DNA of 64,000 nt from Candidatus Spongiisociaceae bacterium. GTDB lineage: Bacteria > Actinomycetota > Acidimicrobiia > Spongiisociales > Spongiisociaceae. The notes beneath the pieces are model-generated. The model searched no databases, had not been told where the DNA came from, and was given only the letters and a program-made list of their open reading frames with translations. Position 1 is the stretch's first letter, and the number at the start of each line of letters is the position of its first letter. The stretch lies in NCBI GenBank assembly GCA_965219685.1, contig CBDCOH010000002.1, positions 352,001-416,000 of the forward strand, written 5' to 3'. The translations under genes and the position numbers were made by a program. This document shows, in pieces, positions 7,069 to 32,474 of this stretch.

Positions 7069-7098
7069 TGTTGGTGGCTTGTGGCTTGTGGCTTGTGG
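7069..7098. repeat. G-rich heptamer array (GTGGCTT)n; left terminal inverted repeat of cassette 1
   Basis: TGTTGGTGGCTTGTGGCTTGTGGCTTGTGG starts at the base after the priA stop; 27/30 match to the reverse complement of 7571-7600. Confidence 0.9.
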
Positions 7099-7109
7099 AG
7101 TCCTAACCG

Positions 7110-7217
7110 ATTCACGATTCACGATTCACGATTCACGATTCACCATTCACGATTCACGATTCACCACTCACCACTCACCACTCACCACTCACCACTCACC
7201 ACTCACCACTCACCACC
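7110..7217. repeat. C-rich drifting heptamer array ATTCACG/ATTCACC -> ACTCACC (15 units)
   Basis: Read directly; abuts the stop codon of the 7218-7409 gene. Confidence 0.97.
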
Positions 7218-7409
7218 CTACCGAAGCACCGCGATGGTGATGGCTGCGGCGCTTGCCACGAGTCCGGTCATCCACCCCACGATCCACCGGGTCTGCTCGG
7301 CGAATCGTTTCTCGATGTCAGCGCGTAGATCGGCTATCTCCGTCCGGACCCCCGAGATAGTGGCATCCAGCCGGTCGCGGCTGACGTACTGGTCTGTGAC
7401 GGTCCCCAT
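7218..7409 (-). CDS. Small coiled-coil protein with C-terminal TM helix (DUF1640/CCDC90-tail-like); paralog of 10448-10621
   Basis: GGAGG RBS 7 nt before ATG 7409; VRTEIADLRADIEKRFAEQTRWIVG...IAVLR matches the second copy. Confidence 0.75.
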   Translation of the reverse strand: MGTVTDQYVSRDRLDATISGVRTEIADLRADIEKRFAEQTRWIVGWMTGLVASAAAITIAVLR

Positions 7410-7447
7410 AGACTTGCCTCCGGGTTCTCTGGTCGATTCCATTAGGA

Positions 7448-7494
7448 TTGTAATCTAATGTTACAAGCCATCATAGTTTCGACTGTCCACTAAG
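7448..7494 (-). promoter_or_regulatory. Putative promoter (TTGCTT-16-TATGAT) and operator palindrome TTGTAA-N7-TTACAA for the small cargo gene
   Basis: AT-rich patch; perfect inverted repeat at 7448-7466; a similar promoter lies upstream of the paralog. Confidence 0.45.
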
Positions 7495-7512
7495 CAACCC
7501 TGCTCTGACTCA

Positions 7513-7600
7513 GTTCACGATTCACCATTCACGATTCACCATTCACCAGCCACCAGCCACCAGCCACCAGCCACCAGCCACCAGCCACCAGCCACCAACA
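7513..7600. repeat. C-rich drifting heptamer array ATTCAC(G/C) -> (AGCCACC)7 ending AACA; right terminal inverted repeat of cassette 1
   Basis: Read directly; ends 2 nt before the TATCCT -10 hexamer of def. Confidence 0.95.
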
Positions 7601-7615
7601 ACTATCCTCCATCCG

Positions 7616-29676: not shown

Positions 29677-30687
29677 GTGGGTGATCACCCGGTGCAGGGA
29701 GGTACGCAACCGGGTGGGAAACATCCCGACGGTATCGCGGTCCGAGTGCCCGGTCCGGGATCACCCGCCCCGGTCATGGCGGTGCTCGGTCCGACCGCGT
29801 CCGGGAAGACCGGGCTGGCGATGTGCCTGGCGAGGCACTGGGGCGCGGAAATACTGTCCGTAGACTCTATGCAGGTCTACCGGGGAATGGATATCGGTAC
29901 GGCCAAGGTGTCGATCGGCGAGCAGGCCGAGATACCGCACCACATGATCGATCTGGTCTCCCCGGAAGTCGACTACACGGTGGCTGATTTCCAGGAGGCG
30001 GGCCGGCGGGCGATAGGAGATGTCCTGTCGCGACACGTTCCTCTGATCATCGCGGGCGGATCCGGCCTGTACTTCCGGTCGCTGGTCGATCCACTCGAGT
30101 TCCCGCCCTTCGACCCTGGAGTTCGCGCCGCGGTCGAATCGATGGGGCACGAGGCTGCTCGCGCCGAATTGCTGGCAGCGGATCCGAGCGCCGGTGCGCA
30201 CGTCGAGTTGGACAACCTGCGACGTGTCCGGAGGGCGGTTGAGATACTGCGACTGGGTGCCGGCGGGCCTTCGGAACGAGCAGACCGACCGGCAGCCGTG
30301 CACGTTCGGAACTACATACCGGAGGTACCGTTCTCGGCTGTGGGGGTGGATCCGGGCGACAGGCTGGCGGATCGCGTTTTGGAACGTATCGACCGGATGA
30401 TCGACTCCGGACTGCTGGACGAGGTGGCCGGGCTGTCGGACCGGCTCGGTCGCAATGCGTCGCGGGCGGTGGGCTACCGCCAGATGATCCCGGTGGCGCG
30501 CGGAGATGTCGGCTTGGAACAGGGTAAGGCGGACACTTTCAAGGCGACGATGGCTCTGGCGAGGCGTCAACGGACCTACTTCGGAAGAGACCCTAGGATC
30601 CGATGGTTGGAGTGGAGCGAGGATCCGGACGTCCGGTGCAGGACCGCCCGGCAGGCCATCGAGGAGATGCAGCCTTGGAGTTCGTGA
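29677..30687 (+). CDS. miaA: tRNA dimethylallyltransferase (start uncertain)
   Basis: GPTASGKT, DSMQVYRGMDIGTAK, GGSGLY, ARRQRTYF. Confidence 0.96.
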   Translation: MGDHPVQGGTQPGGKHPDGIAVRVPGPGSPAPVMAVLGPTASGKTGLAMCLARHWGAEILSVDSMQVYRGMDIGTAKVSIGEQAEIPHHMIDLVSPEVDYTVADFQEAGRRAIGDVLSRHVPLIIAGGSGLYFRSLVDPLEFPPFDPGVRAAVESMGHEAARAELLAADPSAGAHVELDNLRRVRRAVEILRLGAGGPSERADRPAAVHVRNYIPEVPFSAVGVDPGDRLADRVLERIDRMIDSGLLDEVAGLSDRLGRNASRAVGYRQMIPVARGDVGLEQGKADTFKATMALARRQRTYFGRDPRIRWLEWSEDPDVRCRTARQAIEEMQPWSS

Positions 30688-31439
30688 AAGTCGAAGGCTT
30701 GGGCAACGATTTCGTGCTGCTGGAGGGCAGGCCTCCGTCGCCGGCGCAGATCCGGCTCTGGTGCGACCGCCGTACCGGAATCGGTGCCGATGGCCTTCTG
30801 AGGGTTTCGAGGTCGGATCATCCAGAAGCTGTTGCCCGGATGGAGTACTGGAATTCCGACGGGTCGGTGGCCGGCATGTGTGGCAACGGTTTGCGTTGCG
30901 TGGCCCTGTACGTCTTCGAACGGGGGTGGACAGACCGGAGGTCCTTCGCCATCCGGACCGCCACCGGCCTGAACCGCGTCGAGGTGATGGAGAGCGGAGC
31001 CGTCAAGGTGGAACTCGGTCCCTACCGGGTCGGGCGGCAGTCGATCATGGAAGGCCTGCCCTTCACAGCGGTCGACGTCGGAAACCCGCACGCGGTGACC
31101 TTCGTCGGAACCGCTGTCGAACTAGAGGACGCTCCCCTCGCTCGGGTCGGATTGGCGCTACAAGACCATCCGCGCTTCCCCGAGGGAGTCAACGTCGAGT
31201 TCGCTGTGCCGACTAGGCACGGGCTACGGGTGAGGGTCTGGGAACGCGGCGCCGGCGCGACTCAAGCGTGCGGGACGGGCGCGGCGGCAGTGGCTGCGGT
31301 CGCTCACCACGAACGGGGGGGCGGCCCTGTCACTGAGGTCCAGTTACCGGGAGGTCGGCTCGGAGTGGAACTGATCGACGGCGTGGCCTGGATAACCGGG
31401 CCGGCCGTCCTGGTGTTCAGCGGAACAGTTCCCGACTGA
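30675..31439 (+). CDS. dapF: Diaminopimelate epimerase
   Basis: GLGNDF, GIGADG, MCGNG, VGNPH, ERGAGATQACGTG; TTG start after GAGGAG. Confidence 0.95.
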   Translation: MEFVKVEGLGNDFVLLEGRPPSPAQIRLWCDRRTGIGADGLLRVSRSDHPEAVARMEYWNSDGSVAGMCGNGLRCVALYVFERGWTDRRSFAIRTATGLNRVEVMESGAVKVELGPYRVGRQSIMEGLPFTAVDVGNPHAVTFVGTAVELEDAPLARVGLALQDHPRFPEGVNVEFAVPTRHGLRVRVWERGAGATQACGTGAAAVAAVAHHERGGGPVTEVQLPGGRLGVELIDGVAWITGPAVLVFSGTVPD

Positions 31440-32136
31440 GCCGGGATCGCCGGTCGGCGAGCCTCCGCAGGACTGTGACAACCCGTCCGAGTATCTCGAC
31501 CCCTGACGTGAACACGATCGGTTCGTAGGCAGGATTCTCCGCATGGAGGATCACCTTGTTCTGGCGCTTCTCCAGCCGCTTGACGGTCGCCTCCTCCCCT
31601 TCGACCAGACAGGCCACTATCTCGCCGTTCTCGGCGTCAGGTTGGCTGCGCACCACCACCATGTCGCCGTCGAGGATGCCCGCATCGATCATCGAGTCAC
31701 CACGCACCTCGAGCATGAACAGGGGTCCGGAGCCGACGAGGGACTCGGGAAGGGGCACCACTTCCTCGACGTGCTCCTCCGCAAGGATCGGCGTACCTGC
31801 TGCGATCCGTCCCACCAGTGGAACGTCACGGGTTTGCTCCGACCGTCCGGACGGGGCCGCCGGTGCCCGCTGCTGGCCGGTTCCGAGTACTTCGATGGCT
31901 CTTGGTTTGGAAGGATCGCGCCGGATGTGACCGGCTCGTTCCAAGGCGGTTAGGTGGCTGTGGACGGTTGCCGGGGAACTCAGGCCCAGGTGGTGGCCGA
32001 TCTCCCTCACGGAGGGCGGGTAACCACGGGTGGCCACCTCTCGTTTGATCAACTCCAGGACCTGTCGCTGGCGAGGCCGAAGGCTATCGGGATCGGGCTG
32101 CCCGTCCGCCGTTCTGCTGGTGCCGCCGGTGTCCAC
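31417..32136 (-). CDS. lexA: SOS repressor LexA
   Basis: GYPPSVREI wHTH, GRIAAG cleavage site, GDSM and ATVK catalytic dyad. Confidence 0.97.
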   Translation of the reverse strand: MDTGGTSRTADGQPDPDSLRPRQRQVLELIKREVATRGYPPSVREIGHHLGLSSPATVHSHLTALERAGHIRRDPSKPRAIEVLGTGQQRAPAAPSGRSEQTRDVPLVGRIAAGTPILAEEHVEEVVPLPESLVGSGPLFMLEVRGDSMIDAGILDGDMVVVRSQPDAENGEIVACLVEGEEATVKRLEKRQNKVILHAENPAYEPIVFTSGVEILGRVVTVLRRLADRRSRLSRELFR

Positions 32137-32191
32137 TGTTAAGCCTCCTCTTCGTGTACGAACAGAACATAGCCAATGTCACCGCAGAATA

Positions 32192-32205
32192 CAAACATAT
32201 GTTCG
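32192..32205. promoter_or_regulatory. LexA (SOS) box CAAAC-ATAT-GTTCG
   Basis: One mismatch to Gram-positive/actinobacterial CGAAC-N4-GTTCG; upstream of lexA. Confidence 0.8.
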
Positions 32206-32306
32206 AGTGGTGAGTGGTGAGTGGTGAGTGGTGAGTGGCTTGTCGGTTGTCCGTTGTCCGTTGTCCGTTGTCCGTTGACCGTTGACCGTTGACCGTTGAC
32301 CGTTGA
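32205..32306. repeat. Drifting heptamer array (GAGTGGT)~5 -> (TTGTCCG)~5 -> (TTGACCG)4
   Basis: Read directly. Confidence 0.97.
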
Positions 32307-32381
32307 TAACTCTGAACGGTATGCGATAACCGAGCTAGATCCTTGTCACGATGAGCCATGAGGTGTGGTAAGTCGTTCACC
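32307..32381. repeat. Conserved ~75-bp non-coding core, copy 2
   Basis: Homologous to 10274-10345. Confidence 0.85.
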
Positions 32382-32474
32382 GGCAACCGGCAACCGGCAA
32401 CCGGCAACCGGCAACCGGCAACCGGCAACCGGCAACCGGCAACCGGCAACCGGCAACCGGCAACCGGCAACCGG
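32380..32474. repeat. Perfect heptamer array (CCGGCAA)13 + CCGG
   Basis: Read directly. Confidence 0.98.

Follow-up and report, generated by a model that had tools for sequence, protein, structure and literature searches.

Heptamer arrays at three intergenic regions of the window

The window analyzed here is a 64-kb stretch of DNA from a Candidatus Spongiisociaceae bacterium (G000:C2:352001-416000; G000 is the genome under study, whose assembly has a size of 4.42 Mb and a G+C content of 65%). Three of its intergenic regions, located between priA-like and def-like genes (locus 1), rsmB-like and rpe-like genes (locus 2), and lexA-like and LysM-like genes (locus 3), contain tandem arrays of 7-nt units (heptamers). 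Arrays were called with Tandem Repeats Finder (TRF) in the window and then in the whole genome, and gene boundaries were taken from a rough codon-usage gene caller built for this analysis (3794 open reading frames, ORFs). An earlier, sequence-only reading of the window had proposed that the three loci share one grammar on the + strand, consisting of a G-rich array, an insert and a C-rich array, and that they form a candidate undescribed element, a gene-capture system. The grammar is borne out by TRF and by the sequence at all three loci, which are composed as follows (window positions, strand, feature):

7074-7098, +, locus 1 outer left arm (GTGGCTT)3.6, G-rich, 6 nt past the stop of the priA-like ORF (TRF, sequence)
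7108-7216, +, locus 1 inner C-rich arrays, (CGATTCA)8 then (TCACCAC)11 (TRF, sequence)
7218-7442, -, locus 1 small membrane protein gene P0001, 74 aa, tail-anchored, a paralogue of the locus 2 gene
7514-7597, +, locus 1 right arm, (TTCACCA)5 then (CACCAGC)7.7, 19 nt short of the start of the def-like ORF (TRF)
10199-10272, +, locus 2 left arrays, G-rich, with (GGTGGTT)2.6, (GGTGAGT) and (GGTGAAT) blocks, overlapping the stop of the rsmB-like ORF (TRF, sequence)
10269-10347, +, locus 2 copy of a non-coding core of about 70 nt (nhmmer; covariance model, G000:C2:362269-362347)
10343-10375, +, locus 2 C-rich array (ACCTGCA)4.4, 3' of the core (TRF, sequence)
10406-10621, +, locus 2 small membrane protein gene P0002, 71 aa from GTG or 57 aa from the ATG at 10448
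10664-10712, +, locus 2 (ACCGGCA)-type C-rich array, called by TRF as (ACCGGCA)4.9 at 10679-10712, 16 nt before the rpe-like start
32205-32305, +, locus 3 left arrays, (GAGTGGT)4.9 then (TTGTCCG/TTGACCG)9.4, starting directly after the lexA-side SOS box (TRF)
32303-32384, +, locus 3 core copy, about 70 nt (nhmmer; covariance model, G000:C2:384303-384384)
32379-32474, +, locus 3 right arm (ACCGGCA)13.7 (TRF, sequence)

The inner arrays of locus 1 are G-rich on the sense strand of the small gene, because they abut the 3' end of that minus-strand gene. The genes on either side of locus 3, lexA-like and LysM-like, are divergent, and the two SOS boxes are found immediately outside the locus. These LexA-box-like palindromes (GAAC-N4-GTTC; window 32186-32204 and 32478-32510) are conserved in the related genome G007 (L050 2285-2400), and the element is placed exactly between the two SOS-regulated promoters. 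The sequence-only reading had also linked the loci pairwise by a common core and by a common gene with its promoter. The cores of loci 2 and 3 are indeed 75% identical over 72 nt, and loci 1 and 2 do carry homologous small genes, though in opposite orientation; the shared promoter did not hold up, as the upstream regions give no convincing alignment and blastn similarity is limited to the coding sequences.

From the evidence presented below we consider it fairly probable that the three loci are typical representatives of paired heptamer arrays that occur throughout the genome, built like the stem-loop intervening-sequence cassettes that contain a PF05635 (S23p, Avd-like) gene.

Number, placement and polarity of the arrays

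A TRF run on the whole genome returned 1294 rows, of which 387 have a period of 7, versus 21 with a period of 6 and three with a period of 8; because of this excess, the arrays of the window are not due to chance. The 387 arrays form 302 clusters and sum to 20.8 kb. They comprise 83 unit types, with GGTGAAT/GGTGAGT-kind units making up 179 arrays, and the number of copies has a median of 5.6 and a maximum of 54.9. Our own gene caller places 288 arrays between genes, 88 across a gene end and 11 within coding sequence; many overlap a stop codon. Arrays are present in 123 of the 553 convergent spacers, 152 of the 2687 tandem ones and 34 of the 553 divergent ones. Since they are spread over 302 clusters chromosome-wide and favor convergent spacers, nothing sets the three loci apart as directed at housekeeping operons, and the proposal that the boundaries of such operons are targeted is not supported.

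The polarity of the arrays is strict and not random. When neighboring arrays less than 400 bp apart are read on the + strand, a G-rich array is followed by a C-rich one in 56 cases and the reverse order does not occur. Arrays nearer to the left gene are mostly G-rich (151:21) and those nearer to the right gene mostly C-rich (154:30), a rule that is kept at the 3' ends of genes (107:14 and 112:21 for the two sides) as well as at the 5' ends (44:7 and 42:9). Of the 356 scored arrays, 228 have a called gene boundary at a distance of 10 bp or less, and 217 of these follow the rule against 11 that do not; at 60-100 bp the rule still applies (18:3), and beyond 100 bp it weakens (10:8). The G-outward ratio is 33:1 for units with stop codons on both strands and 19:4 for units without any stop, by which stop-codon selection as the sole cause of the polarity is rejected. 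In arrays of GGTGA[AG]T units read on the G strand, the GAG block precedes the GAA block in 32 clean cases versus five. Directional growth that leaves a gradient of decay was not seen: mismatches between neighboring units amount to 0.46 and 0.45 in the two halves of the arrays (p 0.82). As a separate observation, the G strand of GGTGAGT arrays favors the leading strand (59:22) and that of GGTGAAT arrays does the opposite (29:69), preferences that would fit a leading-strand C-to-T bias amplified by array homogenization.

The arms are predicted to pair in several cases. In the folded + strand RNA of locus 1, 21 of the 25 nt of the left arm pair with the right arrays at 7514-7597 (z -3.3), and at locus 3, 74 of the 101 nt of the left arrays pair with the right arm (z -4.1). 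The arms of the PF05635 cassette described in the next section pair over 22 of 33 nt, with z values of -6.7 and -6.2 on the two strands.

Link between the arrays and PF05635 genes

One intact PF05635 gene is present in G000, beside secG (C2:1041196-1041513, 122 aa), and it is bracketed by (GTAGTTG)4.7 and (CTACCAA)4.4. A second copy, at 3558603-3558894, is broken and decayed. The window loci contain no PF05635 ORF; they hold the core and/or another small gene instead. The intact protein fits the NCBIfam four-helix-bundle model, its match to Avd being below threshold, and its best match among solved structures is XCC0516 of Xanthomonas campestris (2GSC, E 1.5e-26). According to the supplement of Rehm et al. 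(2015; PMC4692102), a four-unit repeat of the GGGAATC type overlaps the start of XCC0516. The S23p/PF05635 family has been noted before (PMC11270868), and its proteins have been described as related to Avd, the accessory protein of diversity-generating retroelements (PMC10053308; also a bioRxiv paper).

We searched 41 related genomes (labeled in the G000 series) with PF05635 and with a model of the core. Genomes G002 and G007 contain the same PF05635 cassette, with the same build and at the same locus as in G000. Inverted arrays bracket the gene at all four loci of the genus, and at 13 of the 14 PF05635 loci in other relatives there are inverted arrays of 6-7-mers on both sides, with units of their own. 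Within the genus, PF05635 occurs in three of eight genomes, which are exactly those with the core; among the 41 relatives, 13 are positive. In samples taken away from the PF05635 loci, arrays were found in 8 of 10 positive genomes (up to 90 per Mb) versus 1 of 10 negative ones (Fisher p 0.005, Mann-Whitney p 0.001, both uncorrected for relatedness). G000 has 88 arrays per Mb and G002 has 7.5, and 200-kb samples of G004 and G005 contain none.

The units themselves point in the same direction. Of the G000 arrays, 68/387 match the arms of the intact cassette, where about 2% would be expected by chance, and a further 216/387 match the units that lie beside the decayed copy. Matches to a genome's own arms were also found in G031 (6/7), G033 (5/9) and G002 (2/3). 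Matches across genomes number 0-2, except among kin that share AACTAGC-type units: 62/387 G000 arrays match the arms of G021 and 83/387 those of G002, and the sole array of G021 matches the arms of G000. In G033 the array pairs are ordered C then G, as are its own PF05635 cassettes.

No paper tying PF05635 to genome-wide heptamer arrays was found in the open-licence PMC subset or bioRxiv. As for other candidate partners, the Y1 transposase of the REP-associated tyrosine transposase (RAYT) type (PF01797) has no match in G000, a control search being positive in 6 of 14 named genomes, and no recombinase linked to the arrays was found. A co-occurring reverse transcriptase family, envisaged by the sequence-only reading, was rejected as a partner: PF00078 is present in G000, G005 and G007 and not in G002 or G004, and thus does not track the arrays.

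The core is a dispersed element oriented with replication

The core shared by loci 2 and 3 is a non-coding dispersed element, of which an iterated nhmmer search found 29 copies in G000 and a sequence-only covariance model 34. A TRF-level heptamer array is located within 45 bp upstream of 27 of the 29 nhmmer copies, and 24 of these arrays are G-rich. Copies on the + strand occupy the interval that begins at 3.48 Mb, runs across the start of the record and ends at 1.6 Mb, and those on the - strand the interval of 1.75-3.455 Mb, so that the switch in orientation brackets dnaA (3.4645 Mb) and the minimum of the GC skew (3.44 Mb). In total, 32/34 cores are co-oriented with replication (binomial p 7e-8); the two exceptions are the weakest hit and a copy located 0.45 Mb beyond the skew maximum. 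The four possible arrangements of flanking gene strands are represented 8/8/8/5 times, and the leading strand contains only 57% of the genes. If the terminus of G002 is taken to lie opposite dnaA, its four copies all obey the same polarity.

Another family of dispersed intergenic repeats, with a length of about 190 bp and 86 copies in G000:C2, often ends in AACTAGC-type C-rich heptamers; one copy is located 1 kb from the PF05635 cassette, and no Rfam match was found for the family within the window. The replication bias of this family is mild (52:34), and the replication polarity is therefore specific to the core.

Several possible identities of the core were rejected. A structured RNA is not indicated by the weak RNAalifold consensus (-2.4 kcal/mol, five pairs, little covariation); a search of the window with Rfam 15 at gathering score returned only rRNA, tRNA and PYLIS_3 and no core family, and a search with 12 of the 29 copies at E<=1 gave a single chance match to a snoRNA (E 0.006). 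Nor is the core a sigma-70 promoter, as hexamers resembling -35 and -10 elements are not conserved over the copies when the alignment is inspected by eye. An origin from the PF05635 gene or its leader was likewise dismissed, since the core model has no match at that locus and no similarity is apparent by eye. A degenerate 33-nt core pattern had three matches in unrelated organisms over genome contigs from which G000 itself and near kin are possibly excluded, about two being expected by chance. As regards the features of miniature inverted-repeat transposable elements, the end of the core resembles, by eye, an inverted unit of the left array; no target-site duplication was seen and no parent element was found, no systematic search having been made.

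Repetitive extragenic palindromic (REP) elements serve as targets of insertion sequences (IS) of the IS110 family. An IS110-family element of about 1.5 kb, with an ORF of 410 aa, is present in five copies in G000 (G000:C2:130164-131661, 2495985-2497482, 3082041-3083517, 3088160-3089651 and 3132868-3134357). One copy interrupts a core, an end remnant of about 25 nt remains in the core at G000:C2:3481167-3481263, and in G002 the element is inserted in or near cores; therefore, the core is a target of that element. Like REP elements, bacterial interspersed mosaic elements (BIMEs) and REP doublets forming hairpins (REPINs), the core is a short, non-coding dispersed intergenic repeat with tens of copies. 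Unlike REP elements and REPINs, it has no convincing palindrome or conserved fold, the genome contains no RAYT/Y1 transposase, and the core is joined to heptamer arrays and polar with replication.

The same sites in related genomes and the small membrane-protein gene

The genes flanking the three loci are 86-94% identical between G000 and G007, and the spacers between them differ. In G007, the rsmB|rpe spacer contains a decayed G-rich array, then 45 bp and (CCAGCCA)3.7, with no core and no gene, and the lexA|LysM spacer has only (GGCTGGT)4.4 and no core. At priA|def, G007 has kept the small gene (86% identity over the spanning match) and has no array on the priA side and (CCACAAG)n before def; comparison of the two genomes indicates that the small gene of locus 1 is ancestral to both. 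The small gene of locus 2 is missing at rsmB|rpe in G007, G002, G004, G005 and G006. Spacers of 32 bp and 104 bp are found at these sites in G004, and 1.5 kb separates priA and def in G002. At two further sites, the entire spacer differs between G000 and G007 although the flanks are 93% identical. The filled and empty forms that the sequence-only reading had postulated, and swapped forms as well, can thus be seen at aligned sites in G007, G004 and others. Among the related genomes, the core model matches five of 41: G000, G007 (10 copies), G002 (4), G023 (1) and G021 (1). The copy in G023 is bracketed by its own inverted heptamers; the hit in G021, which looks like coding sequence, was taken as false.

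The small genes of loci 1 and 2 belong to a set of about 16 paralogous loci in G000 (tblastn; 13 at E<1e-3) encoding a tail-anchored small membrane protein, with Pfam matches below threshold to a CCDC90-like family (E 1.9e-5 for the locus 1 gene) and XhlA. An array is present within 600 bp at 7/16 of these loci, versus 8.6% of the genome, and there is none at the other nine. The small gene proposed as cargo is only loosely tied to the arrays and is incidental.

Comparison with known repeats and intervening sequences

Rehm et al. (2015) described G-rich heptamers in Xanthomonas (GGGAATC) and Nostoc (GGGGAYT) and left their function open. In these genomes the G-rich strand adjoins an ORF, either antisense upstream of it or sense just after or over its stop codon; 70-75 convergent pairs were reported, and length and sequence differ between sister species. 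The portions of that paper considered here report no preference for the leading or lagging strand and make no mention of PF05635 (PMC4692102). The arrays in G000 resemble these repeats, as documented in those portions, in being genome-wide, mostly intergenic tandem 7-mers that follow the same placement rule, overlap stop codons, form convergent pairs and differ in length and sequence from one sister species to the next. They differ from them in that they are longer and show no preference for four units, and in that a conserved 70-nt core with replication polarity is located between the arms. The argument made for four-tract quadruplexes in Xanthomonas and Nostoc does not carry over, because the units in G000 contain GG at most and no GGG tracts.

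A second parallel is provided by the intervening sequences of 23S rRNA. In Coxiella burnetii, such a sequence with an S23p gene forms a stem, is cut by RNase III and contains heptamers that vary between strains (Warrier et al. 2016; PMC4990558). As far as the excerpted account goes, it shares with the cassettes of G000 an ORF of the same family placed between stem-forming terminal inverted repeats with tandem heptamers. Unlike it, the cassettes described here are located between protein genes, and most lack the PF05635 gene. The placement rule and the inverted pairs had thus been published for Xanthomonas and Nostoc, and the heptamers of an S23p-containing sequence for Coxiella, and the claim that the element is undescribed is not supported.

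Short tandemly repeated repetitive (STRR) heptamers occur in heterocystous cyanobacteria. The TAACTGA repeats of marine Beggiatoaceae form short sets of 2-6 copies, mostly pointing toward start codons (PMC4679880). What this class has in common with the arrays of G000, judged from the excerpts of that source, is that they are lineage-specific intergenic tandem heptamers, stop all frames in forward orientation and are patchy among lineages; unlike here, those excerpts describe no paired-arm cassette and no core.

The layout seen by the sequence-only reading is borne out more strongly than it was put, and its interpretation in part: the arrays are a known, function-open class of repeats and not a new gene-capture system. 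Two things are new in G000, namely the 70-nt core with its replication polarity and the local support for a link with PF05635.

Possible origin of the arrays and alternative explanations

The arrays lie as inverted pairs: on each side of a spacer the G-rich strand begins at the gene boundary and runs 5'->3' inward, and therefore the arms bracket a variable insert and in many cases are able to form a stem with each other. At the window loci, the 70-nt core (loci 2 and 3) and the small membrane-protein gene (loci 1 and 2) are the inserts. If the three loci belong to a population of paired arrays built like PF05635 cassettes, slipped-strand mispairing would lengthen and shorten the arrays, recombination within shared arrays may swap inserts among sites, and the paired arms may act on transcripts as processing or termination stems, of the RNase III type by analogy with rRNA intervening sequences.

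Several observations weigh against this proposal. The PF05635 cassette shows no recent movement, because it occupies the same secG-adjacent locus in three species. Two genomes with the gene, intact in G030 and broken in G008, have no array in 100 kb and 78 kb, respectively; the PF05635-negative G022 has one array; and in G036 none of the nine arrays match its own cassette arms. The samples in which arrays were counted cover 76-400 kb per relative genome, and the relatives are not independent. In the case of the core, only 8/29 copies have a TRF-level array downstream, shorter runs being visible by eye, the usual left and right units are not complementary, and the proposal leaves the replication polarity unexplained. 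Furthermore, the arms of locus 2 pair poorly (15/74 nt, z -1.2).

A more far-reaching version of the PF05635 link, which we put forward as a possibility that is rather doubtful, is that arrays of the STRR and Xanthomonas types, instead of being passive products of slippage, are the arms of widespread stem-loop cassettes, the autonomous form of which encodes the PF05635 protein. This protein would recognize its own heptamer arms and drive their copying into new spacers via a single-stranded or RNA intermediate, with the small-gene inserts, the 190-bp family and the core as non-autonomous passengers. If true, this would account for the genome-specific units and arm order, the near restriction of arrays to genomes with PF05635, and the strict polarity of the core with replication.

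The sequence-only reading, according to which the loci form a non-autonomous system that captures genes as cargo between arrays at the boundaries of housekeeping operons, now appears improbable. It can draw on the insert at rsmB|rpe in G000 that is missing in five relatives, on the proximity of arrays to 7/16 small-gene loci, and on the PF05635 genes, which are indeed enclosed by inverted arrays; thus, a gene inside inverted arrays does exist, and it is the tight link to the small gene that fails, since 9/16 of its loci have no array and the gene of locus 1 is ancestral to G000 and G007. Moreover, it is convergent gene ends chromosome-wide, and not operon junctions, that are favored, 29 of 33 clusters of inter-array spacers of at least 25 bp are unrelated singletons, no boundary target motif or duplication is evident by eye, and no array-linked recombinase was found. 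A different view, that there is no system at all, strikes us as unlikely: the arrays would be slippage-prone simple repeats tolerated in spacers, the core an unrelated REP-like element, and the spacers around PF05635 genes merely colonized. In its favor, among long simple repeats those with 7-nt units are the most frequent in many prokaryotes (PMC4679880), sister species differ in units at the same boundary, the arrays lack a decay gradient, and the PF05635 cassette is not visibly mobile. However, simple slippage would not account for the 56:0 order of G-rich and C-rich arrays, whatever the gene strand or stop codons, for the upstream array joined to 27/29 cores, for the bracketing of PF05635 on both sides at 13/14 and 4/4 loci, for the near confinement of arrays to PF05635-positive genomes with shared arm units, or for the reversal of polarity in G033 together with its own cassettes.

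The reversed order in G033 also opposes an explanation that we hold to be very improbable, namely that the arrays are translation-safe filler, of which the G-rich sense strand would provide stops in all frames after genes and the C-rich strand would avoid look-alikes of starts and ribosome-binding sites before genes. In the dominant units the G strand does contain TGA and the C strand is free of stops; many arrays lie over a stop codon, and 162/162 arrays of that class are G-out. Nevertheless, polarity is kept by units with stops on both strands (33:1) or on neither (19:4), and the rule holds at 60-100 bp from any gene (18:3).

Returning to the PF05635-like paired arms, lists of heptamer repeats from cyanobacteria, xanthomonads and giant sulfur bacteria go back decades, and these repeats have been given neither an origin nor a function. 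G000 offers a test case, with one intact PF05635 cassette and about 300 arrays that mostly have the heptamers of this cassette and the decayed copy, and close relatives exist with and without both the cassette and the arrays. If the link holds, rRNA intervening sequences, STRR-type repeats and stand-alone relatives of Avd would merge into a single question amenable to bench experiments. The core, with its replication polarity, is puzzling in its own right and hints at a strand-specific step of insertion or selection.

Other features of the window and the genome

Four decayed single arrays had been listed by the sequence-only reading. Two of them are confirmed as period-7 arrays by TRF, and the other two are visible by eye only:

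19182-19240, +, decayed G-rich heptamers at the 3' end of ORF 18668-19213, by eye; TRF gives only a period-10 row
20843-20880, +, C-rich array (CACCTGA)5.6 between a CcdA-like ORF and the rRNA operon, an exception to the polarity rule in being C-rich yet nearer to the left gene (TRF period 7)
35740-35871, +, partial copy of the 190-bp family (G000:C2:387740-387839) with a decayed C-rich heptamer tail (TRF period 7 at 35835-35871)
46949-47165, +, full copy of the 190-bp family (G000:C2:398949-399138) with a decayed AT-rich heptamer tail

The AT-rich tail, near 47143, abuts the 3' end of ORF 47173-49257(-). Outside the window, a higher-order tandem repeat is found at G000:C2:3560220-3561310, with a unit of about 120 bp that consists of a unique spacer and a CACCATT-type array; it adjoins an ORF for a 172-aa membrane/coiled-coil protein with internal 42-bp repeats, and the decayed PF05635 copy is nearby. 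The contig G000:C1 (30.5 kb) has no heptamer arrays and a G+C content of 59%, versus 65% for the chromosome, and may be a plasmid, phage or contaminant. Within the window, the CcdA-like antitoxin ORF (20536-20751, -; 71 aa; Pfam E 1.2e-7) is located just upstream of the rRNA operon. The Rfam match to PYLIS_3, the pyrrolysine insertion sequence of mttB (62445-62544, -; 63.8 bits), lies within an uninterrupted ORF of 520 aa (62029-63591) and may merely reflect coding similarity to the MttB family.

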